DNA of 64,000 bases from Pseudomonadales bacterium (GCA_020632235.1 JACKFY010000002.1:163954-227953); one strand, 5' to 3'. Shown: positions 3,749-63,967, counted from the stretch's first letter. The notes: generated from the letters alone by a model not told the origin. A program made the numbers and translations.

Positions 3749-3761
3749 ACTTGTCTGTCAC

Positions 3762-3880: not shown

Positions 3881-3906
3881 TCTCTCTTCTCCAGGGAGAG
3901 TAGTCT

Positions 3907-14795: not shown

Positions 14796-14826
14796 TTGAT
14801 AAATTTAGAGAGAGAGAGAGGATAAT
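14796..14826 (+). promoter_or_regulatory. Putative promoter: TTGATA, 19-nt spacer containing (AG)7 (14807-14820), then GATAAT.
   Basis: Near-identical core to the promoter at 60511-60540. Confidence 0.4.
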
Positions 14827-35587: not shown

Positions 35588-36017
35588 TGTTGGGTGTGTG
35601 GATACAAATATTTTCATCTATGCATTTGATAATGCCTCTCGCTTTCATATACCATCTGTAAAGACTATTAATACATTATCTACGCTAGGCATAGTGATAA
35701 TGCCGCAGATACAACTAGAGATCTTTAGTGCACTTCATTATATCGAGCCGCTTTCTCAAAAAAGACTTGATCTTATTGATTCTATTCTTTGTCTTCCAAA
35801 AGTACAAAATGTGTATCCTCTAGAAACTACACACACTCGTGCTTTGCAAGAAGCCTTGAAAATTACTCAGTTAGGTAAAAGAAAAATCTTCGACTACTAT
35901 CTTGCCCAAACATTGGTGGATAATGGAGTAGAGGTGCTCTACACCCATAACACAGCAGATTTTTCCGCTTATGCTGAAAAACTGACCATCATCAACCCAC
36001 TCGAACAATCATGGTAA
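35574..36017 (+). CDS. vapC: PIN-domain toxin (VapC-like).
   Basis: VDTNIFIYAFD N-terminal PIN motif. Confidence 0.65.
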   Translation: MTDFSVGCVDTNIFIYAFDNASRFHIPSVKTINTLSTLGIVIMPQIQLEIFSALHYIEPLSQKRLDLIDSILCLPKVQNVYPLETTHTRALQEALKITQLGKRKIFDYYLAQTLVDNGVEVLYTHNTADFSAYAEKLTIINPLEQSW

Positions 36018-36454
36018 AAGCAGCCATCCACCTTCCCATCAAGCTGTTTGACACCACGCTGCCGCTGCCAGAATACCAGACAGGCGGGGCAGCGGGTTTT
36101 GATCTCTGCTCTCGGCTAGACACAGACATTCCCCCAGGGGAAGTGGTACTTGTGCCACTCAACATTGCTATTCAGTTGCCAGAGGGGTACTGGGCGATGG
36201 TGGCAGCGCGCAGTAGCCTGCACAAACTAGGTTTGCAGCTGGTCAACGGGGTGGGGGTGGGGGACGGGGACTACCGGGGGGACGGCGATGAGTATCATGC
36301 GCCACTCTACAACTTTACTAGTCAAGAAGTGCGTATTGCTAAAGGCCAGCGCATTGTCCAGATGATTATCATGCCCCAGATAAGAGCTGAGCTAGAGCTT
36401 CACGCCTCTTTTGATGGCCCAGATAGGGGTGGGTTTGGGAGTACGGGGAGGTAG
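36011..36454 (+). CDS. dut: dUTP diphosphatase.
   Basis: AAGFDL, GxxDxDYRG and RGGFGSTG motifs. Confidence 0.85.
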   Translation: MVKAAIHLPIKLFDTTLPLPEYQTGGAAGFDLCSRLDTDIPPGEVVLVPLNIAIQLPEGYWAMVAARSSLHKLGLQLVNGVGVGDGDYRGDGDEYHAPLYNFTSQEVRIAKGQRIVQMIIMPQIRAELELHASFDGPDRGGFGSTGR

Positions 36455-36645
36455 GTGCTCGAGGTTGGATGTTTAGATAGCTGGACTTTGGGTGCTAGAT
36501 TGTTGGCTTCGACCTACCTTGTTGACTTTGAACACTTTTTTTTCGCAAGGGAAGACATCCCGACATGTCAGGGTTAGAGAAATCCCTAATGCAGATTTTT
36601 TGACTATACTCGAAGTAATAAGCCGGGGTTACTCAGCGTTTTTAG

Positions 36646-36903
36646 CTAGTCTTTTTTTATTTCTTCTTGGTATTTAGCATATTTGTCTGGCTCGTCACTA
36701 GGCCAAGAAACCGTGGTGAAAACCATACCATGTTCGGCATCTTGCAAGTGGTCTTCCTCCATACGACCTGTCCCAAATCTAAATTGTAAACCCATCTCAG
36801 CTGCTACTTCCTCCATAATAAGAACATCTGCAATAGAGTGGTGGCCGCTTACATCGATCCTGACTTTTTTGGTTGTTGGTTCTATTTCTGCTTTTTCAGA
36901 CAT
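36646..36903 (-). CDS. Small hypothetical protein, paralog A (86 aa from the internal ATG; the ORF track extends to 36960 with a TTG).
   Basis: Paralogous to 43461-43718 (shared EEVAAEMGLQ/KEVAQEMGLR core). A conserved promoter lies upstream. Confidence 0.5.
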   Translation of the reverse strand: MSEKAEIEPTTKKVRIDVSGHHSIADVLIMEEVAAEMGLQFRFGTGRMEEDHLQDAEHGMVFTTVSWPSDEPDKYAKYQEEIKKD

Positions 36904-36935
36904 AAGAAAATTTTTATATCTTTTTACTAAGCCTA

Positions 36936-36960
36936 ATTTTCCTCTCTCTCTGAAAGTCAA
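36936..36960 (-). promoter_or_regulatory. Promoter of paralog A: -35 TTGACT, 13-nt spacer = ttc(AG)5, -10 GAAAAT. The spacer is too short.
   Basis: Aligned with the paralog B promoter, which has (AG)7 and a 17-nt spacer. Confidence 0.45.
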
Positions 36961-37045
36961 GTACTAAAATCCTATAACATCTAATAGCCTGCTAGAAAAT
37001 AGAATATTGGGTTTTGGGTTTTGGATGCTGGGGGCTGGTTTTTAT

Positions 37046-37169
37046 CCCCTCTTTTGAAAGAGGGGCTGCTGTCAGCTGACGGAAGGGGTGTTTTGTAAAA
37101 AAAGAGGGAACACAAACACCTCGCCCACTCATCCTTCGAATGAGGGATGCTCCTCTTAAAAAGAGGAGA
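37046..37169. repeat. Hairpin mosaic element: CCCCTCTT-ttga-AAGAGGGG plus GC-rich arms, CCACTCATCC..GAATGAGGG hairpin, CTCCTCTT-aaaa-AGAGGAG hairpin.
   Basis: Homologous modules at 43991-44118 and 60365-60400. Confidence 0.7.
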
Positions 37170-37308
37170 TTTAGTTCCGAACACACTATGTCTTCATTTT
37201 TGCCAAAACAAGCGGGTTTTGAGCACAGTTAGTATGTGTACAAAGCACAAGATGTAGTTTTTTCGGGTTGCGCGTACACAATATGTTGTGGTTTAGTGAT
37301 CAGCTGAT

Positions 37309-43260: not shown

Positions 43261-43460
43261 AAACTAGGCTGTTGGCTTTGGGTGCTGGAGGCTGGTCACT
43301 TTGTCAACTCTGAACTCTTGCCCGAAATGCTACGCAAATGCGTTGCAGGCGAGTGTTTCAGAGTCTGCTTTGATTGTTTTAGCGTGATGATTAGCGAGCT
43401 CGTCCATACGCTTTTTGTTTATCAAACCTTTGGCGAACACTATGGAAGATGCCTGTCGAT

Positions 43461-43718
43461 CTAATTGCCGGTTCTTTTGATAGTGTTATCAACACGTTTC
43501 CAAAAATCCGTCAGTCCTTCTGGTCCCTGCCCAGATATTTCGACCCAACCTTTGCCAGGCTCAGGTTCGTGTAATGTGTTTGTTCCATCGTTGTATGGAG
43601 CCATTTCAGGAGTATCAAGTCTGAGTCCCATTTCTTGCGCAACTTCCTTCATAACTTCAATGTGTTCAAGTAGGTATTGTCCTCTCATAGGTTGGTTTTT
43701 TATAAATAACTCTTTCAT
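43461..43718 (-). CDS. Small hypothetical protein, paralog B (85 aa).
   Basis: Paralog of 36646-36903. Confidence 0.5.
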   Translation of the reverse strand: MKELFIKNQPMRGQYLLEHIEVMKEVAQEMGLRLDTPEMAPYNDGTNTLHEPEPGKGWVEISGQGPEGLTDFWKRVDNTIKRTGN

Positions 43719-43756
43719 AACATGCTTTCTTGTTTATTTTTTACACTTGTTTGGCT

Positions 43757-43785
43757 ATTTTCCTCTCTCTCTCTCTGAAAGTCAA
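43757..43785 (-). promoter_or_regulatory. Promoter of paralog B: -35 TTGACT, 17-nt spacer = ttc(AG)7, -10 GAAAAT.
   Basis: Sequence; optimal spacing, in contrast to paralog A. Confidence 0.45.
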
Positions 43786-43990
43786 GTATCAAAATCCTAT
43801 AACTATGATAGTTTGTTGGAAAATAGGATGTTGGGTTTTAGGCACCTAGTTGCTTTGTCATTTCGACTGGAACAAAGTGAAGTGGAAAAATCTCATCTAG
43901 ATACCCCTGCCCGTAGTGTCTGCGACACAGTCGTTGTAGGCGGGTCAATTTGCAGTCGATATGACAGAGTAAGTAGCCGAAGTCGGGACG

Positions 43991-44118
43991 TCTTCCCTTA
44001 CAAGGGAAGTGTTAAAACACCCCTGGCTTTCAGCCAGCCCCTCTTGAAAAGAGGGGATATAAAACACCCTTCCCCTCACCATTCTATGGTGAGGGATGCC
44101 CCTCTTGCAAAGAGGGGA
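43991..44118. repeat. Hairpin mosaic element: CTTCCCTTACAAGGGAAG, CCCCTCTT-gaaa-AGAGGGG, CCCCTCACCATTCTATGGTGAGGG, CCCCTCTT-gcaa-AGAGGGG.
   Basis: Same modules as at 37046-37169 and 60365-60400, partly in inverted order. Confidence 0.7.
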
Positions 44119-44147
44119 CAGTAAGCAAGATATGCTACTATGAATAC

Positions 44148-50336: not shown

Positions 50337-50455
50337 TCTTTCTGCTAGAGTATGCCTGTGTGCAAAACTCGGTTCTTATTTGTGGAGCGGCATTTGGATA
50401 GAGGAGTAAGTCATTACTATTTGACTTTTCATTATTTTTTCATAAAATAATGTGT

Positions 50456-50710
50456 ATGCAACACATAGTTTCTATTACTACTCAGGGACAGCTCACCGTC
50501 CCCGCCTCTGTCAGGAGAAAATTAGGCATCACTCACTCTACCAAAGCAATAGTGGAGCAGAGAGGTGGGTCATTTGTGGTAACACCAAAAAGGGATTTTT
50601 GGTCACTACCTGGTTCTTTGGCGAAAGGTGTTTCATTAACTGATGAAGAGCTGGAGCATGCTACTAGCTTATTTGAGAAAAACTGGGCTATGAATGAAAA
50701 AACTGGTTGA
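50456..50710 (+). CDS. AbrB/MazE-family antitoxin.
   Basis: TTQGQLTVPASVRRKLGI motif. Confidence 0.55.
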   Translation: MQHIVSITTQGQLTVPASVRRKLGITHSTKAIVEQRGGSFVVTPKRDFWSLPGSLAKGVSLTDEELEHATSLFEKNWAMNEKTG

Positions 50711-51101
50711 TACAAACGTTATTATTCGACTACTGCAAAAAGATGGTACAGCAGAGCAGTTTGCCCAAGCCAAGAAATGGTTTTTACAAGCAGAGCAAAA
50801 AGAGATCTCTTTGAAAATACCTACTATTGTAGTAGCAGAAACATGCTACGTGCTTGAGTCATTTTACCTGCATGATAGACCCACAATAGTTGCGACCATG
50901 AGCGTGTTGCTTTCTCAATCCTGGATAGAGGTTCCAGGCAGAACAATACTACAAAATAGCTGGAGGTGGTACATGCAAGGCTTTCATTTTGTTGACAGCA
51001 TGTTGCTTTCCGAGGCAGAGTATAAAAACTATGATATAGCAACATTTGATAAGAAAGTAGCAACTGCAGTCAAAGGTTTTGAGTTGTCCAAGGCGTATTG
51101 A
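50694..51101 (+). CDS. vapC: PIN-domain toxin (VapC-like).
   Basis: LVDTNVIIRLL motif. Confidence 0.7.
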   Translation: MKKLVDTNVIIRLLQKDGTAEQFAQAKKWFLQAEQKEISLKIPTIVVAETCYVLESFYLHDRPTIVATMSVLLSQSWIEVPGRTILQNSWRWYMQGFHFVDSMLLSEAEYKNYDIATFDKKVATAVKGFELSKAY

Positions 51102-51136
51102 CAACTTGGTCTAACTAGACTAGACTAGGTCTAGTC

Positions 51137-51364
51137 ATGAAAGTTATTAATATATACCAGGCAAAAACCCAGCTTTCACAGCTGGTTGACCGCTCCCTTG
51201 CAGGGGAAGAGATTGTGATCGGCCGGTATGGAAAGCCGGTGGTTTCTTTGCAGGTGGTGGCTCCTACCCCCACTCGCTCGTCCGGACTATTAGAAGGAAA
51301 AATTGTTATACCAAAAGACTTTGATGATGAAAATCCCGTAATAGAGGCGCTTTTTTATGAGTAA
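51137..51364 (+). CDS. Phd/YefM-family antitoxin.
   Basis: INIYQAKTQLSQLV...GEEIVI.RYGKPV motif. Confidence 0.6.
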   Translation: MKVINIYQAKTQLSQLVDRSLAGEEIVIGRYGKPVVSLQVVAPTPTRSSGLLEGKIVIPKDFDDENPVIEALFYE

Positions 51365-51758
51365 TGCATTATTACTCGATACACATGTGTTTCTTTGGTT
51401 TGTTGGAGATGATGACGCTCTTTCTGAGAAGGTAAGGCACTATATACGTGATTTTGATGGGCTAGTATACGTCAGCTCAATCTCTTTGTGGGAGATTCAA
51501 GTTAAGCATGAAATAGGCAAATTAGAACTTAACACCTCATTTGAAGAGATCACAGATGTAGTAGCGCAGAGTGGTTTTGAGCACCTATCATTTTCTGCTA
51601 GTCATGTAGTTGGTCTTTCATCTTTGCCACAGCTGCACAAAGATCCTTTCGACAGAGCGTTAGTTTCCCAGGCTTTGTATGAAGAATGTGTGTTATTTAC
51701 TGCTGACAAAAAGATTTTGCAGTATGAGTGTGAGATAATAGATGTGCGGTCATTTTGA
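51357..51758 (+). CDS. vapC: PIN-domain toxin (VapC-like).
   Basis: LLLDTHVFLWF motif. Confidence 0.7.
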   Translation: MSNALLLDTHVFLWFVGDDDALSEKVRHYIRDFDGLVYVSSISLWEIQVKHEIGKLELNTSFEEITDVVAQSGFEHLSFSASHVVGLSSLPQLHKDPFDRALVSQALYEECVLFTADKKILQYECEIIDVRSF

Positions 51759-51801
51759 AACTAGTGTTGTTCGGTATAATTTCTTAGAAAAAAGATAATC
51801 T

Positions 51802-52962
51802 ATGTCACTCTCAGTTGGAATTGTTGGCTTGCCAAATGTGGGTAAATCAACCCTTTTTAATGCACTTTTAAAGCAACAAGCAGCACTCGCTGCCAACTAC
51901 CCGTTTGCTACGATAGAGCCAAACGTGGGCGTGGTGCCCGTGCCCGATGAACGGCTGGAGGAGCTAGCGGTAGTTATTGCCGCCCAAACTCCAGGAGCCC
52001 AACAACAAGTGTCCCAAAACACCCCCGGCTCTCAGCCCGCCCCTCTTTCAAAGAGGGGATTGCCACCCATAAAGCCAGCTACCGTTGAGTTTGTTGATAT
52101 TGCAGGGCTGGTGAAAGGGGCGAGCGCTGGTGAAGGGCTGGGCAACCAGTTTCTCTCTCACATCCGCGAGGTTGACGTGATTGCGCAGGTGATCCGCGAC
52201 TTTAGTGACACGCAAGTACTTCGCGAGGGGAGTGTGGACGTGCAGAGCGACTTGGAAACAATCCAGATGGAGCTGCTTTTGGCAGACCTCAGCACCCTTG
52301 AGAAACAAAAAGAACCCAAAGCAACCAAAGACAAACAACTATTAGACCGCTGGGAGGTGATCCAAACGTTTTTGAGCACTGCACGAGAGGGGACGCAGCT
52401 ACGGGACGCCCTAGGGAGTCCAGAAGCCAGTCAGATTGCCAAAGAGCTGAACCTACTTACCACCAAACCAATACTGTACGTCCTCAACATTGATGAAGAG
52501 AGACTGCGCGAGAGTGACACGTTGGCGCGCGAGTACGCCGTGATGCTTGGTTGCTCGCAAACCCAAGTGGTGGTGGTGTCCGCCCAGATAGAGAGCGAGC
52601 TTTCGAGCCTGAGCGACAGCGACCAAGCGCTGTATCTCAAGGACCTTGGGTTAGCCCAAAGTGGTCTTGAGCGATTGATCACAACAGCCTACGAAACGCT
52701 CAAGTTGCAGAGTTTCCTCACGGCAGGAGAAAAAGAAGTCAGAGCCTGGACGATCCGCCAGGGCACAACTGCACCACAAGCAGCAGGCGTGATCCACACT
52801 GATTTTGAAAAAAAATTTATCAAGGCGAAAGTGAGCTCTTACGCAGACTTTGTTGCTCACAATGGCTGGAAGGGGGTGAAGGAATCTGGTCAACTGCGCC
52901 TGGAGGGCAGAGAGTACGTGATGCAGGAAGGCGATGTAGTAGAGTTTATGGTGGGATCTTAG
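51802..52962 (+). CDS. ychF: Ribosome-binding ATPase YchF (Obg-family GTPase). Carries a ~28-aa insertion that contains a hairpin repeat.
   Basis: GIVGLPNVGKSTLFNAL, FVDIAGLVKGAS.GEGLGN.FL and a C-terminal TGS domain. Insertion TPGAQQQVSQNTPGSQPAPLSKRGLPPIKP relative to E. coli YchF. Confidence 0.9.
   Translation: MSLSVGIVGLPNVGKSTLFNALLKQQAALAANYPFATIEPNVGVVPVPDERLEELAVVIAAQTPGAQQQVSQNTPGSQPAPLSKRGLPPIKPATVEFVDIAGLVKGASAGEGLGNQFLSHIREVDVIAQVIRDFSDTQVLREGSVDVQSDLETIQMELLLADLSTLEKQKEPKATKDKQLLDRWEVIQTFLSTAREGTQLRDALGSPEASQIAKELNLLTTKPILYVLNIDEERLRESDTLAREYAVMLGCSQTQVVVVSAQIESELSSLSDSDQALYLKDLGLAQSGLERLITTAYETLKLQSFLTAGEKEVRAWTIRQGTTAPQAAGVIHTDFEKKFIKAKVSSYADFVAHNGWKGVKESGQLRLEGREYVMQEGDVVEFMVGS
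52040..52058. repeat. CCCCTCTT-tca-AAGAGGGG hairpin repeat lying in-frame inside ychF (encodes ..PLSKRG..).
   Basis: Identical stem sequence to the intergenic repeats at 37046, 44041, 44098 and 60365. Confidence 0.7.
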
Positions 52963-52999
52963 GTAGTCTCCACACCCTCTTTTCAAATAGACATTTCAA

Positions 53000-53266
53000 G
53001 TGTATAATACGCTACATATGAACGTCATTACCGCCACTACTCTGAGAAACAATTTTTCCGATAGCATGCAGCAAGTTGCTGATGCAAAAGATTATTTGTT
53101 AGTAGCAAAACGAGGAAAAATTCAGTCTGCTGTGGTCAATATAGAGTTATTTGAAGAGCTATTAGATCTTCGAGACTCTTCCTATCTTAAAAGCATTCAG
53201 AAAGCAAGAAAAGAGTACGAAACTGGTGACGCGTTGAGTCATGACGAAGTGTTTGGAGAGCTTTAG
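53000..53266 (+). CDS. Phd/YefM-family antitoxin.
   Basis: ITATTLRNNFSDSM profile; overlaps the RelE-like gene. Confidence 0.6.
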   Translation: MYNTLHMNVITATTLRNNFSDSMQQVADAKDYLLVAKRGKIQSAVVNIELFEELLDLRDSSYLKSIQKARKEYETGDALSHDEVFGEL

Positions 53267-53520
53267 TGTACAGCGTTGTGTATACAAACCAAGCAATCAA
53301 GGATATCAAAAAACTTGATGCAGTATCCAAAAAGAAACTTGGCAAAAAGATACTGTTGTATGTAGCAGATCTTCTTGTGCATGCAAGAAAATTAGTACAC
53401 TCTGATCTGGGTTCATACCGTTGGCGAGTGGGAAAACTTCGAGTGGTATTTGATCTTGACGAGCACAATACTACCATTGTGGTGCTCAGAGTTCGTTTCC
53501 GCAGAGATATCTATAGGTAG
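53266..53520 (+). CDS. RelE/ParE-family toxin.
   Basis: ..Y.V.Y...A.KD.KKLD......I......L...P......L.G....YR.RVG.LRVVF.......T..V..V..R. profile. Confidence 0.65.
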   Translation: MYSVVYTNQAIKDIKKLDAVSKKKLGKKILLYVADLLVHARKLVHSDLGSYRWRVGKLRVVFDLDEHNTTIVVLRVRFRRDIYR

Positions 53521-53628
53521 TATTGCCCCAGTCGCTATGTTTTTTTTGTGATACACTACACACAACACCTTCTCTCACGTTCGTAGTGAGAGATCCAATA
53601 GCTCTTCGGGTGTAGAACAGGAGTATCT

Positions 53629-54012
53629 ATGAAACTAGCGAAAAAAACAGCAGCTCGTCAGTATGAGGTAACGTACCTCATACCTTCTTCGCTTTCGACC
53701 TCGGAACAAAAAGCACTCCATGATGCTGTGCAGGCCCTTATTTCCAAACACTCTGGGACGGTTGTTAATAGTGATGACTGGGGGGTAAAAGAGCTGGCGT
53801 ACACCATTATTGTTGGGGGCGAGCGCTATCATGAGGCAGTCTACACTCATCTTCTTGCAGACCTTGACGGAGCAACTATTTCCAAACTAGAAAAAGATCT
53901 AGGAATACTCAAAGGGGTGATTCGTCACCTGGTAGTTCGAGCAGATGAGGCAGACACCTCTTCCACTAGCAAAGCAAGTACAAAAGCAAGCAAAGAAACA
54001 AGCGAAGAGTAA
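53629..54012 (+). CDS. rpsF: 30S ribosomal protein S6.
   Basis: RQYEVTYLI start and acidic C-terminal tail; rpsF-ssb-rpsR order. Confidence 0.8.
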   Translation: MKLAKKTAARQYEVTYLIPSSLSTSEQKALHDAVQALISKHSGTVVNSDDWGVKELAYTIIVGGERYHEAVYTHLLADLDGATISKLEKDLGILKGVIRHLVVRADEADTSSTSKASTKASKETSEE

Positions 54013-54033
54013 ACACTACGAAGGAAAGGCTCT

Positions 54034-54519
54034 ATGGCGTCACGATCATTAAATAAAGTGCAGTTGATTGGCAATCTTACCCGCGATCCAGAGTTGCGAT
54101 ACATTCCTAGTGGGGCAGCAGTGTGTTCATTTGGGCTGGCTACCAACCGCAGTTGGACATCTGATAGTGGTGAAAAACAAGAGTCAGTCGAGTTTCACAA
54201 CATCACTGCCTGGAGAAAACTAGCCGAGATTTGCGATCAACTACTTGGTAAGGGCGACAAAGTCTACATTGAGGGTAGGCTGCAAACCCGCAGCTGGACA
54301 GGCGAGGACGGCAACGAGCGTAAGACAACAGATATTGTAGCTGAAAACATGATCTTATTGCGTTCCATCAAAGGTGCTGATGGTGAGTATGAAAGCACTG
54401 GTGATAAAAAATCAGCTCCATCAGCAAAATCAAAGAGTGGTAGTAAATCACAAGATGATCCAGAGCCAAAAGAAGAAGCAAGCGCGGTAGAAGATATCTC
54501 TGACGATATTCCATTTTAG
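54034..54519 (+). CDS. ssb: Single-stranded DNA-binding protein.
   Basis: OB fold; C-terminal acidic tip DDIPF. Confidence 0.9.
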   Translation: MASRSLNKVQLIGNLTRDPELRYIPSGAAVCSFGLATNRSWTSDSGEKQESVEFHNITAWRKLAEICDQLLGKGDKVYIEGRLQTRSWTGEDGNERKTTDIVAENMILLRSIKGADGEYESTGDKKSAPSAKSKSGSKSQDDPEPKEEASAVEDISDDIPF

Positions 54520-54554
54520 TAGTAGATACCTCTTAAAAAACAGACACTCATTCT

Positions 54555-54782
54555 ATGCCAAAGCGAAAAAGTCCTAGAAAAATCATTAGAAAAGTAAAAG
54601 TACCCAAAGGCGTGGTGCTCAGCTATAAAGACAGCGAGACACTCAAGCTGTTTGTTACCGAGCAAGGTGCTTTGTTACCCAGAGAAGCCACTACCTTGAG
54701 TCAAAAAAACCAGCGCAAGCTAGCCCGAGAGGTTAAGCGCGCACGCCACTTGGCGCTACTGCCGTTTACCCAGACTCTGTGA
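54555..54782 (+). CDS. rpsR: 30S ribosomal protein S18.
   Basis: bS18 profile; operon context. Confidence 0.85.
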   Translation: MPKRKSPRKIIRKVKVPKGVVLSYKDSETLKLFVTEQGALLPREATTLSQKNQRKLAREVKRARHLALLPFTQTL

Positions 54783-54822
54783 GTGCTCGTCGGCCGACGG
54801 AGGGAAATCTACTTGGACTCCT

Positions 54823-56607
54823 TTAGACGTGCGTTGATTGCGCGCGCGTTTCTTGCGCAAACACGAAGGTGTAGTCTCCTCCTGGTTTTTCTGGTATTGT
54901 CACTGCTGCATTTCTAGACAACATGTTGTTTGTGACAGGTGGGATGAGTGTATCAACCCGTCCGTCAAACAAAATTGTTTCTATCGTTTTACTATCTTTG
55001 TGTTCCTCTAATAATGCTTCTATTACACTGCGCAATACCATGATGGCGTTGGTGCTGTGTTTGAGCAGGTTGATAATTTCAAGCAGTCTGCGCGAAGCGC
55101 CGCGTGGTGTTTGAATGATGTCTTGATTGTCAAACACCAATGCCTCAACAGAGAGGGTAGCTGGCAGTAGTTCTTTGACCAGCAAGTGATGCACAGCAAC
55201 AAATTCTCTTGAGTCATTGCTTTGGACACCCAGCTCTTTATGTTCAGCAAGAGCAGAGAGCGACAATTGACCGCTACTGGCCAGCTCGCAGCGATAGCAG
55301 ACAGAGCACTCGCCAACGAGCGCTGCGCTACCACATGAAACGCATGTTCCATGCTTCCACAACTTGGCGCGCTCTGCCCCGATGAGGCTGGTGAGCTCCG
55401 CATGACTGAGTGAGTTTGCCAGAATACTTGGGTTGAGTTGCATTTGTAGCCCCAGCGAGGTGGGTGTGCCCAAGATACAGTGGGCAGCGCTGGCTAGTTG
55501 TTTCATGGGTCCAGACAGCTGGACGGCGCTGCCCAGCAGAGCGATACTCGCTTTTTCTTCCTTTGAAGAAACTTCTCCTTCTTTTTTGAGTGTCAGGTGC
55601 CTTATTTTTTCTAGTGTTGCGTGGCCAAGCTGGTAGTTTCCTTCCATGCTGATGCCAAACTGTTGTTTGAATGCCGTGCGTTCTTGCTCTGTCTCGTTTG
55701 AAGCCTTATAGTTTTCTGCGTGGTCTTCCACCCACATCAAAAATAACTCTCTGCAGGTGAGTACAAGCCTGTCAAACTGCGCTATTTCTGCTTGGTTGCC
55801 ATGGTCTATATCAGCAAATGTCTGACTCAAAAAGGTGGTAAAGAGTTGTTGTTGTGCTTGGTAGAGGTCTAGATTTACTTTGGGTAGACTATTGAGTTTT
55901 ATCGCCCAGGTGTACTCACGCAGATAGAGCCACTGCTCTATATCTTCGTCAGATACCGCATGATGAGTCTGGAGTATCGAGCCAATGAGGCAATGATCAA
56001 TTCTACTTGTGTGTTTGTTGTTGGGCCAAAGCTGGGTTTTTTCAAAATGTAACTTTGACTGGATATTGGCCGAGAGGGTAGCAAGCTGGATGTCGTTGTC
56101 GTACGAGCGGTACTGCGTGAGGGTTGCTATTCCACCTTGAGTTTTTCGAAACACATTTATAAACGAGTAGTGTTCTGGCTTTTTGCCCGGATAGCCCTCA
56201 TCTGGCGTGCCGGTGGGACTGATGGCGATGAGTGTCGCACCAGTGGGCACCGCGCTGTCTGTCATCCAGTGTTGAAGATAGCCAAGGGACGCAGACTCCA
56301 AGATAGCGCGGGTGGGCTCCAGGCTACGCACCACAGCGCTTTCTACCATTTTTTGTCCTACCTGGATCAGGGAGAGTGGTGAGGCGCCACGAATACCGTG
56401 TGTGGTGTACTCGTAGCGCACCTTGGCCATCATGGCAGCGTACTCATCAAACAGTGTGTTGAGTTCTACTTTAAAGTGATCTAAAACATCGCTTATTTCT
56501 CTGCCAGTGGCAATGTGTGCAGCATAACTAGAGCTATCCCAAATGGATGGTTTGTGTTGTGGCTTCAAGTGCGAAATAGCTTGGCTGATTCGCTCTGTAA
56601 ATGACAT
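54823..56607 (-). CDS. Hypothetical 594-aa protein with a C-terminal Cys cluster (CVSCGSAALVGECSVCYRC). Start chosen at the ATG with AAGGAG 5 nt upstream.
   Basis: ORF; Shine-Dalgarno-supported start; no recognisable catalytic motif. Confidence 0.5.
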   Translation of the reverse strand: MSFTERISQAISHLKPQHKPSIWDSSSYAAHIATGREISDVLDHFKVELNTLFDEYAAMMAKVRYEYTTHGIRGASPLSLIQVGQKMVESAVVRSLEPTRAILESASLGYLQHWMTDSAVPTGATLIAISPTGTPDEGYPGKKPEHYSFINVFRKTQGGIATLTQYRSYDNDIQLATLSANIQSKLHFEKTQLWPNNKHTSRIDHCLIGSILQTHHAVSDEDIEQWLYLREYTWAIKLNSLPKVNLDLYQAQQQLFTTFLSQTFADIDHGNQAEIAQFDRLVLTCRELFLMWVEDHAENYKASNETEQERTAFKQQFGISMEGNYQLGHATLEKIRHLTLKKEGEVSSKEEKASIALLGSAVQLSGPMKQLASAAHCILGTPTSLGLQMQLNPSILANSLSHAELTSLIGAERAKLWKHGTCVSCGSAALVGECSVCYRCELASSGQLSLSALAEHKELGVQSNDSREFVAVHHLLVKELLPATLSVEALVFDNQDIIQTPRGASRRLLEIINLLKHSTNAIMVLRSVIEALLEEHKDSKTIETILFDGRVDTLIPPVTNNMLSRNAAVTIPEKPGGDYTFVFAQETRAQSTHV

Positions 56608-56835
56608 AGACTCCTTTGTCTTTGTATGTGACAAAAGAGCATCAGCGTTTGTGTGTATGTGTAGAAAAAAAACGCCCGATGCTCGTCGGTATACTGAGTG
56701 ACACAGCACTCGGTATTTATCGCCAAGATCGGACTTGTCTCTTGTATGCAGAGCTTCACCGTTGCGGCACAGTCCCGGAATGAAGACCGGAGTTCCAGTG
56801 CGATAGAGTCTTACTCTAACGCATTCACACGAGTG

Positions 56836-56853
56836 TTGTCAACGTGCTACAAT
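56836..56853 (+). promoter_or_regulatory. Extended -10 promoter TGcTACAAT (56845-56853), with TTGTCA just upstream. The transcript would start about 8 nt before ATG 56862, giving a near-leaderless ctpA.
   Basis: Sequence motif. Places the track's GTG start (56844) inside the promoter. Confidence 0.4.
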
Positions 56854-56861
56854 GGCTTTCT

Positions 56862-58103
56862 ATGCGCGGTCGTTTTGAGGTATTTTCTCAAGTAGTAATT
56901 GGTTTGTTGCTGGTGGGCATCGGTCTTTTGGCACAGTATCGCTATCACGTTGTTGAGCGGGTGCGGGCAAATGTTGCCGATACAGGTAGTGGCGTTACGC
57001 GTAGCACCACTGCGTACACCGACCCTCAGAGTGTTGACCTAACCACGTTTTGGCAGGTGTGGCGGGCGCTTGAAACCGAGTACATCGAGCCAGAAAAGCT
57101 TGACCAAGAAGTGATGGTAGACGGGGCTATTCAGGGCATGACCGCGTCGTTGGGTGACCCGTACACTATGTACTTACCACCAGAAGATAATAAACGGAGC
57201 GCTGAAGACCTGGCAGGTTCGTTTTATGGAGTAGGAATTGAGCTGGGGTATCGTGAAGGAGTTTTGGCGGTGGTAGCACCACTCAAAGGCACGCCGGCAG
57301 GAAGTGCCGACGTGCAGCCAGGAGACTTGATTTTGAGAGTGAAGGATGAGCAGAAGTCACTTGATGCTGACTCTACCAACTGGGCACTTGGTGAGGCAGT
57401 GGACAACATTCGCGGACCAAAGGGAACGCCTGTCACGCTAACTTTATTTCGCCAAGATTACAACGACAACCAACCATTTGAAGTCGTGTTGGAGCGCGGC
57501 GAGATCGTAGTCAACTCGGTAGAGCTAGAGTATGTTGAGAGTGCTGGCAAGCGTGTGGCTCACCTGACGGTATCCAGGTTTGGTGAGCGTACGAACGATG
57601 AGTGGAACACCGCAGTAGCCGATATTTTGGCACAAAAAGGGTCTCTTTCTGGCATAATTTTGGACATGCGCAACAATCCTGGTGGGTTTTTTGATGGCGC
57701 GATCACTATCGCTAGTGATTTTATCCCGAGTGGAGTAGTCGTTTCGCAAAAAGGAACGGGAGGCTCAAGAGAGTACAGTGTTGATCATCGCTCGCGACTA
57801 GATGGCATTCCCGTTGAGGTGTTAGTCAATCGAGGCTCTGCGTCTGCCTCCGAGATCGTGGCTGGCGCACTGCGTGACAGAGTGGGCGCGCAGTTGATTG
57901 GTGAGCAAACCTTTGGCAAAGGCACTGTCCAAGACAGGCTAGAGCTGGCTAATGGTGGCGGTGTGCACATCACCATTGCCCGTTGGTTGTTGCCCAGCGG
58001 CGAGTGGATTCATGACGAGGGTATTCCTGTTGATATTGCGGTAGAGCAAAATCTAGAGACAGAAGAGGACGAAGTGCTACTTACAGCAATTGAGGTGTTG
58101 TGA
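56862..58103 (+). CDS. ctpA: Carboxyl-terminal processing protease (S41 family) with PDZ domain and N-terminal TM anchor.
   Basis: PDZ (GVGIELGYREGVL.V..P..G.PA..A....GD.I) plus S41 catalytic region (DMRNNPGG ... NRGSASASEI). Confidence 0.85.
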   Translation: MRGRFEVFSQVVIGLLLVGIGLLAQYRYHVVERVRANVADTGSGVTRSTTAYTDPQSVDLTTFWQVWRALETEYIEPEKLDQEVMVDGAIQGMTASLGDPYTMYLPPEDNKRSAEDLAGSFYGVGIELGYREGVLAVVAPLKGTPAGSADVQPGDLILRVKDEQKSLDADSTNWALGEAVDNIRGPKGTPVTLTLFRQDYNDNQPFEVVLERGEIVVNSVELEYVESAGKRVAHLTVSRFGERTNDEWNTAVADILAQKGSLSGIILDMRNNPGGFFDGAITIASDFIPSGVVVSQKGTGGSREYSVDHRSRLDGIPVEVLVNRGSASASEIVAGALRDRVGAQLIGEQTFGKGTVQDRLELANGGGVHITIARWLLPSGEWIHDEGIPVDIAVEQNLETEEDEVLLTAIEVL

Positions 58104-59274
58104 TATGACTGCTCGCACATCATTTCTTCTTGGTCTGGGCATCTCCATTTTGATTATGTTCTCATTTTTTGCCGGAGCGTTGGCAGATAGAGTGTTTGTA
58201 ATACGACCACTTGACGCGCTTGCACCTCGAATCACCTCTTCTGCTGAAAATGCTAGTAATGACATCTCCAATCTTGGTACGCTATTGATACCCGAGCAGG
58301 AAAACTCAGTCGCTGATGTAGCAGAGCGCGCATCTACTAGTGTGGTGACGGTCTCTGTGAAAACCCAGCAGCAACTATTTGAAGAAGTGCCAGGCCTATT
58401 TGGCTTTGGCTTTCAGGTGCCAAGTGGTGAGGTGCAAGAAGTGCAGCAAGACATAGGTACGGGGTTTGTGGTGAGTGAAGGGTTGGTGGTGACCAACAAA
58501 CACGTGGTGTCGGGTGCTGCTTCAGAATACCTGGTGATCACCGCCGATAACACCGAGCATGTAGTTTCACAAATATACCGTGACCCCGAGATTGACATGG
58601 CCATTCTCAAAGTTGCTAACCTTACTAGCGCTGCATTACCACTAGGTGACTCTGACAGCGTGCGGGTGGGGGAGGGTGTGATAGCGATAGGCACCGCACT
58701 AGGCGAGTTTCGGCATACGGTTACCACGGGTGTAGTATCTGGCCTGGGACGAGCTATCACGGCTGGGGGTGGGGTGGGTAGTGCTACTGAAAGTCTAGAA
58801 AATGTGATCCAGACTGACGCAGCTATTAACCCAGGAAACTCTGGCGGGCCACTACTTAGTTCGGCTGGTCAAGTGATTGGGGTGAATGTGGCCGTCTCGC
58901 AGTACGCAGAGAATATAGGGTTTGCTATTCCTATCAACGTGATTAAACATTCATTAGAACATTTTAACAACACAGGGCAGTTTACCCGTCCATTTCTAGG
59001 AGTAGGGTATAGCGTGGTGTCAGAGCAAGCAGCGCTGGCAAATGAAGTGCCGCAAGGCGCGTACGTAACCCAAGTACAGTCAGGTTCAACGGCTGATAGG
59101 GCAGGTTTGAGGCCAGGTGATATTATTACTTCGTTTGCTGGTACTCAACTGAAGGATGTAGAGCTTGCCACCCTCATTAATGACCACACAGTAGGTGAGA
59201 GTGTTGTCATAGAGTACTGGCGAGAAGGCGTGCGCCAGACGGTCTCCGTTACCCTGGAGGCTGCCAACGAGTAA
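58090..59274 (+). CDS. htrA: HtrA/DegP-family serine protease with C-terminal PDZ domain (TTG start).
   Basis: GTGFVV...VVTNKHVV (His), D (Asp), NPGNSGGPLL (Ser), PDZ GLRPGDIIT. Confidence 0.85.
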   Translation: MRCCDMTARTSFLLGLGISILIMFSFFAGALADRVFVIRPLDALAPRITSSAENASNDISNLGTLLIPEQENSVADVAERASTSVVTVSVKTQQQLFEEVPGLFGFGFQVPSGEVQEVQQDIGTGFVVSEGLVVTNKHVVSGAASEYLVITADNTEHVVSQIYRDPEIDMAILKVANLTSAALPLGDSDSVRVGEGVIAIGTALGEFRHTVTTGVVSGLGRAITAGGGVGSATESLENVIQTDAAINPGNSGGPLLSSAGQVIGVNVAVSQYAENIGFAIPINVIKHSLEHFNNTGQFTRPFLGVGYSVVSEQAALANEVPQGAYVTQVQSGSTADRAGLRPGDIITSFAGTQLKDVELATLINDHTVGESVVIEYWREGVRQTVSVTLEAANE

Positions 59275-59284
59275 GGCGAGGTGT

Positions 59285-59372
59285 TTAAAACCCCTCTATC
59301 CTGAACTAAAGTCGGGATGTCCCCGTGCCCCCCGATGTTTCATCGGGGAGTCCCCTTACGAAAGGGAGGGAG
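59285..59372. repeat. Hairpin mosaic element (left arm of an inverted pair flanking prfA): AAAACCCCTCTATC ... CCCCCCGATG-ttt-CATCGGGG ... TCCCCTTACGAAAGGGAGGG.
   Basis: Reverse-complement match to 60403-60489. Confidence 0.7.
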
Positions 59373-59382
59373 GTGCTTAGCA

Positions 59383-60336
59383 CTACATAACAGGCGAAGA
59401 GTCTTCTTCCCTTTCCATCTCGGTTTTTAGCTCTACGAGCATCTCTGCAATCCCACCATCCAGAATGCCCTCAAGGTTGTACCACGACTGCTTAGTGCGA
59501 TGGTCGGTAACTCTATTTTGCGGAAAGTTGTAGGTGCGGATCTTCTCAGACCGCCTGTTGCGCCCGATAGCGCTTCTGGCATCGCCTAGCTCTTTGAGGC
59601 GCTTTTCTTCTTCAATCTCCCACAGCTGCGCGCGCAAGAGCTCGAGGGCAATCTTGCGGTTTTGCTCTTGTTTTTTTTCTTGCCTGGCCTGTACGGCAAT
59701 ACCACTAGGGGTGTGTGTCAGGCGCACCGCGCTATTTACTTTATTTACATTTTGCCCACCCGCCCCCCCCGCGCGCATGAACTGCCACTCTAGGTCTTCA
59801 TCGCGAATTTCAACTGCTGTGCTCGCAACTTCTGGCAAAACCGCCACGCTGGCAGTAGAGGTATGAATGCGGCCTTGTGACTCTGTCTCTGGCACGCGCT
59901 GCACTCGGTGCACACCACTTTCATACTGCAGGAGCTCGTAGGCTGTCAGGCGAATTGTCTGCTCGTCAGATTGCACCTTGGTGCTGCCGATCAGTTTGAT
60001 CACTAGGTCGTCAATGTACTCAATCTTCAGTTTTGAGGTTTCGGCAAACCTGGCATACATTCGCATCAAGTCAGCCGCCCAGATTTTAGCCTCATCACCA
60101 CCAGCCCCAGGGCGGAACTCAAGCGTACAGTTGGTGTGGATGGTGGTTTGACCACTTTCTGCATTCATGGCGTCTTCCAGATCACTTGCGAGCGTTTCTA
60201 GTTGTTTTTTTTGTGTTTCTAGCTGTTCTATTTCGCTTGCGGCTAGCTCCGCCATGTCTGGGTCGTCTAGTAGAGCAGTGGTTTCTGCAATCTGGTGGTC
60301 TAGCAGGTCAAGTTGTGATTGATACGGATTCTGCAT
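59383..60336 (-). CDS. prfA: Peptide chain release factor 1 (short form, 317 aa).
   Basis: PET (PxT tripeptide), GGQ motif (RAGGAGGQNVNK) and the C-terminal RNRTYNFPQNRVTDHR class-I RF signature. Confidence 0.85.
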   Translation of the reverse strand: MQNPYQSQLDLLDHQIAETTALLDDPDMAELAASEIEQLETQKKQLETLASDLEDAMNAESGQTTIHTNCTLEFRPGAGGDEAKIWAADLMRMYARFAETSKLKIEYIDDLVIKLIGSTKVQSDEQTIRLTAYELLQYESGVHRVQRVPETESQGRIHTSTASVAVLPEVASTAVEIRDEDLEWQFMRAGGAGGQNVNKVNSAVRLTHTPSGIAVQARQEKKQEQNRKIALELLRAQLWEIEEEKRLKELGDARSAIGRNRRSEKIRTYNFPQNRVTDHRTKQSWYNLEGILDGGIAEMLVELKTEMEREEDSSPVM

Positions 60337-60364
60337 GAGACATCTAGTATAGCAGGTGTTTCAT

Positions 60365-60489
60365 CCCCTCTTTTCAAGAGGGGCTGGCTGCAAGCCAGGG
60401 GTGTTTTATCACTCCCTTTGTAAGGGGACCCCCTGATGAAACATCGGGGGACAGGGACATCAAGCGCTAGTGTGATAGAGGGGTTTTTT
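60365..60489. repeat. Hairpin mosaic element (right arm): CCCCTCTT-ttca-AGAGGGG with GC arms, TCCCTTTGTAAGGGGA, CCCCCTGATG-aaa-CATCGGGGG, and the 30-mer ATCAAGCGCTAGTGTGATAGAGGGGTTTTTT.
   Basis: Matches 3762-3880 (same orientation) and 59285-59372 (inverted). Confidence 0.7.
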
Positions 60490-60510
60490 ATTATCTTATA
60501 ACTTTGAATA

Positions 60511-60540
60511 TTGACAAATGAAGAGAGAGAGAGAGATAAT
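60511..60540 (+). promoter_or_regulatory. Promoter: -35 TTGACA, 18-nt spacer containing (AG)7 (60522-60535), -10 GATAAT. Upstream of the 269-aa hypothetical gene; GAAGGGGGG Shine-Dalgarno at 60569-60577.
   Basis: Consensus hexamers; same architecture as 14796-14826. Confidence 0.45.
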
Positions 60541-60582
60541 GGAGAGAGTTGGAAACTATAATTAATTGAAGGGGGGAAATAT

Positions 60583-61392
60583 ATGCCTTTTTTTGAAAGA
60601 TTTAGGAAGGATCGTGGTCAACACCCTCCCGAACCATCAGAATCAGAAGCATCTCAACTTAGAGAACTGAACCAAGAAAATGAGACTAGGTTGGCATTGG
60701 CATGTCAGCAACTGAGAAATCTATGGCATATTTATAATCAATATTTTCCCGAGTTAGGATTTCTTCACACTTCTGTTGACGGGAACTTATTATCCCTAGA
60801 GCAGGGAGCTCGTAGTGGTTTTTTTGCAACTCTTGAGAAACCATACAATAAACAAACAAACACGCGAGAGGTTTTAGCTGCATTTTCATTTCACTTTGGC
60901 GCCGATGATTTGCCAGATGTTTCTTTTGGATTTGGCACCGATGAAATTAGCGTACATGAGAACTCTGCCACAATCACCAATGCAAAAGAGAAACAACGCA
61001 TAGTAGAATACCTAGAAGGCTACTTGGCGGCATTGATGGAGCAACTATTTGTAGCAGTAGACACGCTTACTGAACTAGTAATGGAGGATTTAAGAAATTC
61101 AGACCCCGAGTCACAAGACGGAGAATATGCTTTATTTTTTGAAAACCAATTCGTTACAGTAGACATTACAAGCTCTGGCTTGGTGATCAACAACAATGCT
61201 CCAGGAGAGATTATATTGCAGAGAGACATACAGTCATTTATGAAGCGTTGGCCAGATGATGATACGAAATGGTTGTCAAGCTACATTAAAACAATAAGAG
61301 ATCTTTCTAGGTGGATACATCAACATAATATTGAAAAAAGACTCAAAAACAAAATAGAAACAGAAATAGGGAATAAACTAGCAAAAAACTAG
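60583..61392 (+). CDS. Hypothetical protein (269 aa), AT-richer than its neighbours.
   Basis: ORF with an upstream Shine-Dalgarno. Confidence 0.45.
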
Positions 61393-61721
61393 CTCGTCTT
61401 CCCCGCCCGCATCTCACTTTTTTGCGCACGAAGGATATCTTTGTATGACTGTGGGTCTGCCTGGTTGCCCTGTTTTTTCTTTGCCTGTTTGCCAATAGTG
61501 GCGGTCTTTTCTTTTGACTTGGCTGCTGCCTCCATCTTTTTCTTAAACCGGTCAACGCGGCCCTGGCGGTCAACAAACTTCATCTCACCGGTAAAGAACG
61601 GGTGACACTTGCTGCAGATATCAACCTGCAAAGACTCAACAGTAGAGCCAACAGTAAAGCTATTGCCACAACTACACGTAACAGTAGCTTGATGCCAGGT
61701 GGGGTGAATGCCTTGTTTCAT
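61389..61721 (-). CDS. rpmE: 50S ribosomal protein L31 (Zn-ribbon type A) with a C-terminal basic extension.
   Basis: CSCGN...[10 protein letters not shown] motif. Confidence 0.85.
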
Positions 61722-62188
61722 AAGGAACGTATTTTAGCATACTTTGAAGGTGTGGTATAGTGTGGATAGTGTTAGTGAAACCAAAAGAAAGGAGGTTGTT
61801 TATATAAATTACATAGAGCGTGTGGTCCCCCTCACCTTGTTTTCTGGTCCAGTCGCCAGACCACAAGGTGAGGGGGGATACGAGGAAGCAGGTCCCTCAC
61901 TTGCAAGTGAGGGAAATCGGACTCTTTGGCTACATATATGGTGTAGCCTTTGAAGCATCTGCGGAAACCTGCTGGGTGAGCGTGAACATCCATCAATGCG
62001 TAGCATCAAACCTTTTTAGTAATGAAAAGAACAAAGTGCTAAGCAGCTTCGCCACCTTAACAAGTAGTTGAGGTGTTTTTATCACCAGTAAAAACAACTC
62101 TCTCTAGAGAGTAGTGGAAGCTCGCTTTTGGCACGTGCAGCTTTGTTGCACCTTTGCCTTTGATGAGTGCACTAAGAAAAGGAGTACT

Positions 62189-63967
62189 ATGTGTGGAATT
62201 TATGTTGCAGTATGTGACGATGCTCAAGAGAAAGTCTTAGCAGGTTTGAAGCGCCTAGAGTACAGGGGGTACGACTCGTGGGGCGTGGCTGTTGTGAGTG
62301 ACACGGCGCTCCACATAGAGAAGTATGTGGGTCAGATAGGTGCTGTGCAAGAACTGTTGCTGCCATCCACACGCGTTGCGCTTGGGCATACTAGGTGGGC
62401 AACCCATGGTGGCGTGACACAAGCCAACGCGCACCCCCACTCGGCTAGCGATGACTCCTTCGTGCTAGTGCAGAACGGCGTGGTAGAGAACTACCAAGAG
62501 CTGAAAGCTAGTCTGAAAACAGAAGGATATGAATTTGTTTCCCAAACTGATACCGAGGTGATTGTGCGCTTGCTAGAAAAAGAGATGAAAAAGGGTGGTG
62601 AAGAGTTGCCTTCTCGCACTTCATTTCAAGCCACGATGGACCAACTAGAGGGCAGAAGTACGGTTGCTGTTCTAGCCCAAAACAACTTGCTGCTGCTGTA
62701 TCGCAATGGTTCGCCATTGGTGCTTGGGAAAAATAAAAAGGGAGCAGTCTTTTGCTCATCCGATGTCTTGAGTATGGCCGGCGATGCCACAGAGTATTAC
62801 ACAGTAGAAAATGGCGAGGTGGTCACGATCTCACCCACAGGTGAAGTAGTATGCTTTACAACTAGTAGTGATGAGCCGGTTGTCATGAGATACAAAAAAA
62901 TTGATGTAGAGGCACATACTATAGATAAGAATGGCTATGCGCACTACATGCTCAAAGAGATATTTGACCAAGGACAAGTGTTACTCCAGGTCACCAATCA
63001 ACCTGCTGCAGAGCTCAAAAAGACTGTTTCATATATAAAAAATGCGCGGATGGTGTACACGTTGGGGGCAGGGAGCGCTAGTTTTGCGGCTCAGTTCTTG
63101 AGTTTTCAGCTCAGACAACTTGGCATCCAGTCAGACTCGCTGCCTTCTTACGAAGCACGTTCGTTCCAGTCATTGTTTCAAAAAGACGACGTGGTGATTG
63201 TGTTTAGTCAAAGCGGCGAGACCGCCGACACCAACGAGGTGGTGGAGTGGATGAAAAAACAGGGAGTGAAAGTGGTGAGCATTGTCAACATGTTGGGCTC
63301 AACCCTGACTCGACTATCAGATAGTCCACACATGTTGCAAGTGGGGCCGGAGGTAGCGATTGCGAGCACCAAGGCATTATCTGGACAGCTAGTATGGAGC
63401 TTGTTCATTGCTTGGCTGGTTGCAGGAAAGAGCGAGCAAGACTTTCGAAAGCAGTTGCAGGTATATCAGGCGCATCTCCAAGAGTGGCTGGAGAGCACTA
63501 GCCTGCAGCACCAGCTTGAAGAGCTTTCGGTCCAACTACTGCAGCACAACCAGATGTTTATCTTGGGTCGCGGGCAGTTACACACGAGTGCGCTTGAGTT
63601 TGCGTTAAAAATGAAAGAGATCAGCTACATTCACGCTGAGGGGTTTTCTGGTGGTGAGCTCAAGCATGGGGTGATTGCACTGATTAGCTCGGGTACTCCT
63701 GTATTTTGTCTTATTGCTCAAGACAGCGAAAAAGCAGATATGCTTTCGGCTGCCGCCGAAGTGCGCGCGCGGGGTGGGTGGGTGGTGGGGGTGGCCCGGG
63801 AGAACAATGAGCTCTTCTCAGAATGGATCCAGTTGCCTGAAGACGAGCTGTTTGTTGCTATCTCCAGCTTTGTACCCGCACAGTTACTGACGTATTACTT
63901 GGCACTCAAACATGGGTTTGACCCTGATAAACCAAGAAACCTAGCCAAGAGCGTGACGGTAAAGTAA
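62189..63967 (+). CDS. glmS: Glutamine--fructose-6-phosphate aminotransferase. Start at MCGI; the ORF opens at 62114.
   Basis: N-terminal MCGI (Cys2 nucleophile), two SIS domains, C-terminal ..KPRNLAKSVTV. AAGGAG Shine-Dalgarno 6 nt upstream of ATG 62189. Confidence 0.9.
   Translation: MCGIYVAVCDDAQEKVLAGLKRLEYRGYDSWGVAVVSDTALHIEKYVGQIGAVQELLLPSTRVALGHTRWATHGGVTQANAHPHSASDDSFVLVQNGVVENYQELKASLKTEGYEFVSQTDTEVIVRLLEKEMKKGGEELPSRTSFQATMDQLEGRSTVAVLAQNNLLLLYRNGSPLVLGKNKKGAVFCSSDVLSMAGDATEYYTVENGEVVTISPTGEVVCFTTSSDEPVVMRYKKIDVEAHTIDKNGYAHYMLKEIFDQGQVLLQVTNQPAAELKKTVSYIKNARMVYTLGAGSASFAAQFLSFQLRQLGIQSDSLPSYEARSFQSLFQKDDVVIVFSQSGETADTNEVVEWMKKQGVKVVSIVNMLGSTLTRLSDSPHMLQVGPEVAIASTKALSGQLVWSLFIAWLVAGKSEQDFRKQLQVYQAHLQEWLESTSLQHQLEELSVQLLQHNQMFILGRGQLHTSALEFALKMKEISYIHAEGFSGGELKHGVIALISSGTPVFCLIAQDSEKADMLSAAAEVRARGGWVVGVARENNELFSEWIQLPEDELFVAISSFVPAQLLTYYLALKHGFDPDKPRNLAKSVTVK

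Follow-up and report, generated by a model that had tools for sequence, protein, structure and literature searches.

The stretch of DNA analysed here (the window) is 64,000 nt long and includes a ychF gene whose reading frame encloses a complete copy of a short, two-hairpin repeat. The features of this locus are listed below.

51802–52962, + strand: ychF coding sequence, 386 aa; the host gene, intact, with G1 GLPNVGKS, G3 DIAG and G4 NxxE kept
51991–52068, + strand: extra 26-residue segment P64–P89 relative to the 360-aa YchF form, of which only the middle 45 nt are repeat-derived
52016–52060, + strand: complete 45-nt repeat unit in ychF, AAAACACCCC-C-GGCTCTCAGCC-CG-CCCCTCTT-TCA-AAGAGGGG-AT
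52025–52039, + strand: weakened hairpin H2, consensus CTGGCT-nnn-AGCCAG, here CCGGCT-CTC-AGCCCG
52040–52058, + strand: hairpin H1, perfect 8-bp stem and 3-nt loop, CCCCTCTT-TCA-AAGAGGGG, encoding PLSKRG

The interval 51802–52962 is the only long ORF at the hairpin site. Its 386-aa product, with the N-terminus MSLSVGIVGLPNVGKST, matches the Pfam domains MMR_HSR1 and YchF-GTPase_C and aligns over its full length with YchF proteins. The YchF/OLA1 ATPases are defined by a P-loop G1 motif, a G3 DxxG motif, an unusual G4 motif (N/T)(M/L/V)xE, an inserted helical domain and a C-terminal TGS domain (PMC11814078). The product belongs to this family by its Pfam domains, its Foldseek matches and its invariant residues: every column invariant among 120 homologues is kept (G9–T17, D99–G102, N229 and E232), including the P-loop, DIAG and the YchF-type G4 N..E. 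The initial annotation was therefore right to place H1 in frame within ychF, translated as PLSKRG, since the hairpin lies inside an intact ORF. It had also called YchF essential, which does not hold in Escherichia coli: the protein is universally conserved, and deletion of ychF shows no marked phenotype in normal growth (PMC11814078).

The ychF unit (52016–52060; full sequence AAAACACCCCCGGCTCTCAGCCCGCCCCTCTTTCAAAGAGGGGAT) is laid out as the tag AAAACACCCC, a 6-bp hairpin, an 8-bp hairpin and a final AT, and runs from codon Q72 through codon G86 and one base into codon L87, with residues 81–86 (P-L-S-K-R-G) encoded by H1. In the predicted fold, H1 forms its full 8-bp stem and H2 forms four of its six consensus pairs. 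A search with the 19-mer of H1, allowing at most three mismatches, found five sites in the window, whereas 100 dinucleotide-preserving shuffles gave no match; the hairpin is thus real and part of a repeat family. Membership of a family had been proposed at the outset, with H1 alone as the repeat; the full element is in fact the 45-nt two-hairpin unit with its 5′ tag. Indeed, the ychF unit aligns without gaps over 45 nt with 44014–44058 (88.9% identity) and with the reverse complement of 60363–60407 (86.7% identity), and an nhmmer profile built from these two copies only recovers the ychF copy over model positions 1–45 (E = 5.2e-9 in 72.7 kb). Five private differences separate it from its closest relative, 44014–44058. 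Two lie in the H2 stem (CCT to CCC and CCA to CCC), where they are synonymous third-position changes that jointly weaken the stem; one, in the H2 loop, replaces F by S, and two, in the H1 loop, replace E by S. The first description of H1 as identical to the intergenic copies is accordingly correct for the stems and not for the 3-nt loop, which is TCA in ychF versus GAA, GCA, TTC or TTGA in the intergenic copies.

On neither side of the ychF unit does the sequence significantly resemble the flanks of the other units (p = 0.05–0.9 by shuffling), and exactly one complete unit is therefore present in ychF. An extension of the repeat match into the PGAQQQVS or LPP codons was rejected by the same shuffling (p = 0.05–0.9), and a candidate half-hairpin past the ychF stop (52972–52990) was rejected with E = 14 in the profile search. 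The hexamer AAGTGT stands 4 nt upstream of the ychF unit, as it does before three intergenic units, which is suggestive only. The copy has neither a target-site duplication nor terminal inverted repeats: its two ends, AAAACACCCC and GGGGAT, do not form an inverted pair, no duplicated sequence is seen in the flanks GTGTCCC and TGCCACC, and the copies of a CACCC repeat at the unit are 44 nt apart, out of frame with the conserved LPP codons. As 45 nt make 15 codons, an insertion of this length preserves the frame behind it. Of the six ways to read the consensus unit, four are open, the one used in ychF included.

We examined 72.7 kb for further units, namely the window and 8.7 kb to its right (L118). 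Seven H1 hairpins were found, all of one architecture: the tag AAAACACCCC(T), a variable inner hairpin that is either H2 (CTGGCT-nnn-AGCCAG) or of the H3 type (CCCTCACC...GGTGAGGG), then H1 and AT, for a total length of 45–59 nt. Five of the units are intergenic, one is in ychF and one extends over the 3′ end of hisS. Listed next are the intergenic units and the clusters of related modules.

37044–37094, − strand: intergenic unit with another inner hairpin and a 4-nt H1 loop
37114–37170, + strand: intergenic H3–H1 unit, its H1 with the compensatory change CTCCTCTT...AAGAGGAG
44014–44058, + strand: intergenic H2–H1 unit, the closest copy, 88.9% identical to the ychF unit
44061–44119, + strand: intergenic H3–H1 unit, in tandem with 44014–44058
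60363–60407, − strand: intergenic H2–H1 unit, 86.7% identical to the ychF unit, inside a 71-nt match with 43995–44065
59323–59382, no strand assigned: related hairpin modules (CCCCGATG-nnn-CATCGGGG; TCCCCTTACGAAAGGGA), clustered in a spacer where genes converge
3760–3890, no strand assigned: cluster of the same accessory hairpin modules, with an GATAGAGGGGTTTTTT motif also found at 60456–60497

The closest copy, 44014–44058, lies 8 kb upstream of the ychF unit in the same orientation, and the cluster at 59323–59382 adjoins the stop codon of a release-factor gene. Between 44099–44117 and 37150–37168, a compensatory double change turns CCCCTCTT/AAGAGGGG into CTCCTCTT/AAGAGGAG with pairing retained, and the intergenic units have a fold stability well above that of shuffles (z about −4.4); from these two observations, hairpin formation is under constraint in the family. 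Assemblies made independently break at the repeat clusters, and one contig (L001) has repeat clusters at both ends, which fits what a multi-copy family would give. In Rfam, no family reached its gathering score over the hairpins, and metagenome scans with specific unit patterns returned no matches. The concatenated translated repeat clusters found nothing in the protein database at E ≤ 10, the peptides being too short for significance. The searched literature holds no description of such repeats in Patescibacteria, nor of the motif sequence.

Two non-coding stretches of the window, 36455–37308 and 43261–44147, are unusually long (about 850 nt) and contain hairpin units. They also contain the full copies (36942–36978 and 43767–43803, 95% identity) of a 37-nt repeat, (CT)n-GAAAGTCAAGTAYYAAAATCCTATAAC, of which inverted partial copies are found at 14804–14826 and 60503–60533. 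An ORF without a Pfam match, 43465–44124, crosses one of these stretches and is probably not a gene.

The unit that overlaps hisS is located past the right end of the window (L118 13391–13449, about 65870–65928 in window numbering). The hisS product ends ...QDKLAT-YPLFSRGASLVTKW, and its last 13 codons and stop are within the unit; the orthologue in L003, a contig of one of the nearest relatives, has a different C-terminus (...EGIIEKLKI, then stop). Coding sequence is touched by two of the seven units in the 72.7 kb (ychF and hisS), with no gene-internal copy other than that in ychF.

The repeat contributes 15 of the 26 extra residues of the window YchF (QNTPGSQPAPLSKRG, Q72–G86); the remaining 11, PGAQQQVS upstream and LPP downstream, are not repeat-derived. 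A segment of about 28 residues had initially been read as the insertion. The gap between A56 and K91 is 8 residues long in 111 of the 120 nearest homologues, 13–27 in the other nine and 34 in the window protein. All nine longer loops end in (L)PP, like that of the window, their sequences are unlike each other and unlike QNTPGSQPAPLSKRG, and the repeat peptide is absent from the 120 homologues. In a neighbour-joining tree without support values these nine sequences are scattered and do not form one clade. No repeat-free relative carries an unrelated insert of the same length, but the shorter, unrelated expansions in these nine limit the repeat claim to 15 residues. PGAQQQVS and LPP are thus part of an older or independent loop expansion, and the A56–K91 connection is a place where length has changed repeatedly within this Patescibacteria group. 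Removal of 52015–52059 would give ...QQQVS-LPPIKPATVEF, with a loop length within the range of the relatives. An origin of the relatives' expanded loops from repeats of their own was considered and rejected: the loop sequences of L003 (19 kb), L116 (8 kb) and L115 (1.6 kb) have no copies elsewhere in their own DNA, and L003 and L116 contain no GC-rich hairpin family and no units of the ychF repeat.

The nearest YchF homologue is 69–70% identical, and the nearest sources are MAGs of Patescibacteria, Woesebacteria, Pacebacteria and Microgenomates. No close insert-free ychF was found: the 90% cluster comprises the protein MCB9801994.1 and a 160-aa fragment without the insert region. The contig of this fragment is 100% identical to the window, and the fragment therefore comes from the same strain.

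An AlphaFold model of the window YchF (mean pLDDT 81, pTM 0.77) has a helix at 50–62, no assigned secondary structure at 63–93 and a strand at 94–101, with pLDDT below 50 at residues 67–82. Foldseek pairs the model with 50S-bound E. coli YchF (8kie) and Thermus thermophilus YchF (2dby) at E = 4e-38, and also with Haemophilus influenzae YchF (1jal); in the alignment with 1jal, the solved protein has a 26-residue gap exactly at the insert site. The insert had been expected in a surface loop of the helical insert domain. The model does place it in an unstructured, low-pLDDT connection, but not in that domain, which is found at about 147–195: the predicted location is in the ATPase (G) domain, past the G2 region and ahead of the DIAG of G3. 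By general G-domain topology, the entry of strand 94–101 should be far from the nucleotide site. The added peptide QNTPGSQPAPLSKRG is rich in Pro, Gly, Ser and Gln, and this composition, together with the low model confidence, is consistent with an exposed and flexible loop.

Our preferred explanation, to which we give a probability of roughly 80%, is that a 45-nt unit of the intergenic family was copied into a permissive loop of ychF and tolerated there. A small non-coding repeat unit, usually confined to short intergenic spacers, would have landed in the connection between helix 50–62 and strand 94–101 of the ATPase domain, a connection whose length and variability among these Patescibacteria would already have exceeded those of other YchF proteins. 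With its 15 codons and a stop-free frame, the unit would have lengthened YchF by QNTPGSQPAPLSKRG instead of breaking it, and its survival would be owed to a length that is a multiple of three, an open frame and a hydrophilic, flexible peptide. Tolerance by selection is what we infer from the flexibility of the loop peptide and its low model confidence, and the insertion would be neutral. Both the direction of the event (insertion into ychF) and its age are read across the 69–70% identity to the nearest YchF. The perfect 8-bp stem of H1 fits a recent insertion and equally fits selection on the hairpin.

As for the copying route, it may have been a single-strand hairpin transposition of the REP/RAYT type, or else recombination or template switching. 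Entry without a dedicated transposase, with a nearby copy such as 44014 as the source and recombination, gene conversion or replication template switching as the process, is possible, if on the unlikely side. It would agree with the lack of a target-site duplication and of terminal inverted repeats, with a nearest copy only 8 kb away in the same orientation, and with the annotated genes of window positions of about 36–72 kb (L118 extension included), among which there is no transposase. However, the flanks offer no significant homology to guide recombination, and the insert matches the unit boundaries of all seven copies exactly, which a discrete mobile unit fits better.

We may also wonder whether the unit, once inserted, has been put to use, either as an mRNA hairpin (pausing, stability or processing) or as a functional peptide of the ATPase domain. 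H1 has kept a perfect 8-bp stem while H2 has decayed, another copy of the family shows a compensatory change, and, among the five differences, two are synonymous and the other three (F to S, E to S) make the peptide more hydrophilic. On the other hand, five substitutions are too few for a selection test, the loop is of low confidence in the model and its connection varies freely among relatives, H1 has no T tail and no terminator was called at the hairpin, and the insert occurs in no second lineage. We regard such a use as improbable.

That all of the extra segment arose by ordinary loop expansion specific to the lineage, with a hairpin resemblance due to chance or convergence in a GC-rich stretch, is very improbable. 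The unrelated 13–27-residue expansions at this exact site in nine of the 120 homologues, scattered as they are in the neighbour-joining tree, do show that the loop grows without the repeat. They account for the 11 flanking residues and not for the central 15, where the gap-free 87–89% match over 45 nt covers the non-palindromic AAAACACCCC and both hairpins in the same order, with no match expected from shuffles and an independent profile E-value of 5e-9. An assembly artefact, in which reads of an intergenic repeat were misjoined into ychF, can be dismissed almost entirely: repeats do break assemblies, L001 with its two repeat-cluster ends being a case in point, but the ychF copy has five private differences and keeps the frame, an exact 15-codon insert between conserved blocks is not what a chimeric join would give, the ychF DNA is 100% identical in the Logan assemblies of two unrelated runs (SRR12358676 and SRR28385529), whence the insert is no one-off artefact, and the identical protein is deposited at NCBI as MCB9801994.1 (on a 245-kb contig).

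The insertion of a unit into ychF can be compared with known repeat systems, beginning with the palindromic elements (RPEs) of Rickettsia, which are about 100–150 bp long. Like RPEs, the family found here is small and palindromic, occurs both between genes and in frame in conserved genes, where it is read as extra peptide, and its placement in YchF is compatible with the protein fold. The likeness to RPEs suggested in the initial annotation stands: a repeat of an intergenic family lies in frame in ychF and is read through. With respect to in-frame translation, ychF gains 15 codons with its motifs intact and the tail of the hisS product is unit-encoded. Unlike RPEs, the unit measures 45–59 nt, with two short hairpins and a 10-nt tag, and is set apart by this length; its host is a member of the Patescibacteria, and the coding cases in 72.7 kb are one internal and one C-terminal. 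The intergenic arrays, built from few hairpin modules in varying order and orientation (clusters at 37.0, 44.0, 59.3 and 60.4 kb), are reminiscent of the enterobacterial BIMEs, although without sequence relationship and in a different host phylum. To our knowledge, BIMEs are extragenic.

The RPEs (Ogata et al., 2000; see the summaries in PMC10969869 and PMC3733652) are the classic in-frame palindromic repeats. Intragenic REPs are on record for several species (Di Nocera et al., 2013; PMC3733652); the GTAG and CGTC super-families of REPs are imperfect palindromes of 20–40 nt with a GTAG or CGTC tag at one end (PMC3733652). In-frame fusions are also made by MITEs, namely ERIC, BOX and cyanobacterial MITEs (PMC10969869). 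With REPs, our units share short GC-rich stem-loops, a conserved single-stranded end tag and mosaic arrays in short spacers, and their position, over the seven units in 72.7 kb, may likewise be mostly downstream of genes and occasionally within them; they differ in that no GTAG or CGTC borders the stems, that they start with AAAACACCCC and end with AT, and that each holds two hairpins. REPs go together with a RAYT, an IS200/IS605-like tyrosine transposase; the genes annotated at about 36–72 kb include no Pfam family of this kind. With MITEs, they share the nature of a small non-autonomous repeat able to sit in reading frames and add peptide, whereas the ychF copy has no terminal inverted repeats or target-site duplication and is far shorter than is typical. 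The ychF unit thus behaves like RPEs and intragenic REPs, but it has neither the REP tag, nor the RPE length, nor the terminal repeats and target duplications of MITEs.

Known repeat behaviour is left unchanged by this finding, which extends a Rickettsia-type phenomenon to another lineage with reduced genomes. A very small, gene-dense Patescibacteria genome carries modular hairpin repeats that sometimes enter reading frames: one unit lengthens a loop of a universally conserved, translation-associated ATPase, and another supplies the last 13 codons and the stop of histidyl-tRNA synthetase. The connection between helix 50–62 and strand 94–101 of YchF would be a permissive insertion site.

A scan of a genome collection with the pattern GCCCCTCTT-N3-4-AAGAGGGGA, which is loose, gave a listing whose matches come from many phyla (loci L004–L114) and do not include the source genome. 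Among the matches listed, 27 of 141 CCCCTCTT...AAGAGGGG hairpins show the motif (A)AATC[TA]CCCCTAG-CCCCTCTT-nnnn-AAGAGGGGAA, or in short form (A)AATCNCCCCTAG followed by the hairpin; variant spacers included, the extended motif has at least 47 copies. Its hosts are Acinetobacter, other Gammaproteobacteria, Peribacteria, Saccharibacteria, cyanobacterial MAGs and others (for example L005 3088, L019 925 and L044 5370), and it is often found head-to-head with a similar GGGGGATT-type hairpin. The unit of the window corresponds to this motif once a second hairpin is placed precisely within the TA of CCCCT^AGCCCC, the nested hairpin varying from copy to copy. Rfam, plasmid annotation and the searched literature provided no explanation for the motif. 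That the unit is part of a much wider, undescribed class of hairpin elements is a doubtful proposition for now. If true, hairpins would be mobile in this reduced Patescibacteria genome and prefer a particular nesting site, and the system would form a new repeat class, one that reshapes conserved proteins here (the ychF loop and the tail of the hisS product).

Judged by gene content and homologues, the host is a member of the Patescibacteria (CPR). The database labels conflict: the YchF protein MCB9801994.1 is filed under 'Pseudomonadales bacterium', and an identical 20-kb contig, with 100% identity to window 52480–62962, under 'Candidatus Woesebacteria bacterium' (GCA_020429115.1). This is a warning for annotation and binning, as assemblies break at the repeats and a single contig carries the label Pseudomonadales or Woesebacteria depending on the MAG.

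Several other features of the window deserve mention. The ychF gene is located within a dense series of toxin–antitoxin pairs at 50450–53520 (PIN/VapC, PhdYefM and ParE); the nearest relatives, L003 and L116, lack these pairs in the syntenic region. The PIN toxin of 1813–2205 has an identical protein in another sample, where it adjoins a dUTPase gene (L122 119–1080, compared with window 1813–2205 and 36011–36454); this context differs from that of the window and suggests that the toxin cassette moves. Partial copies of tRNA-Trp are found at 1303–1375, 1452–1497 and 2196–2250, around the true gene at 1379–1450. After the anticodon loop GGTCTCCAA, their sequence is replaced or continues with a CCCCGATG...ATCGGGG hairpin, and they may be duplicated integration sites or hairpin repeats in tRNA-like sequence. 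Contigs of other samples break at these partial copies, and leftward matches are all shorter than 2 kb. A glmS ribozyme (61806–62054; Rfam RF00234, 50.6 bits) lies upstream of glmS (62189–63967). Finally, in the sequence from SRR12358675 (L119), which is 99.9% identical to L118 with three gap openings, the acetyltransferase gene is predicted as three short ORFs and not as one (L119 4471–5013 versus L118 12734–13189), and may be a frameshift variant.
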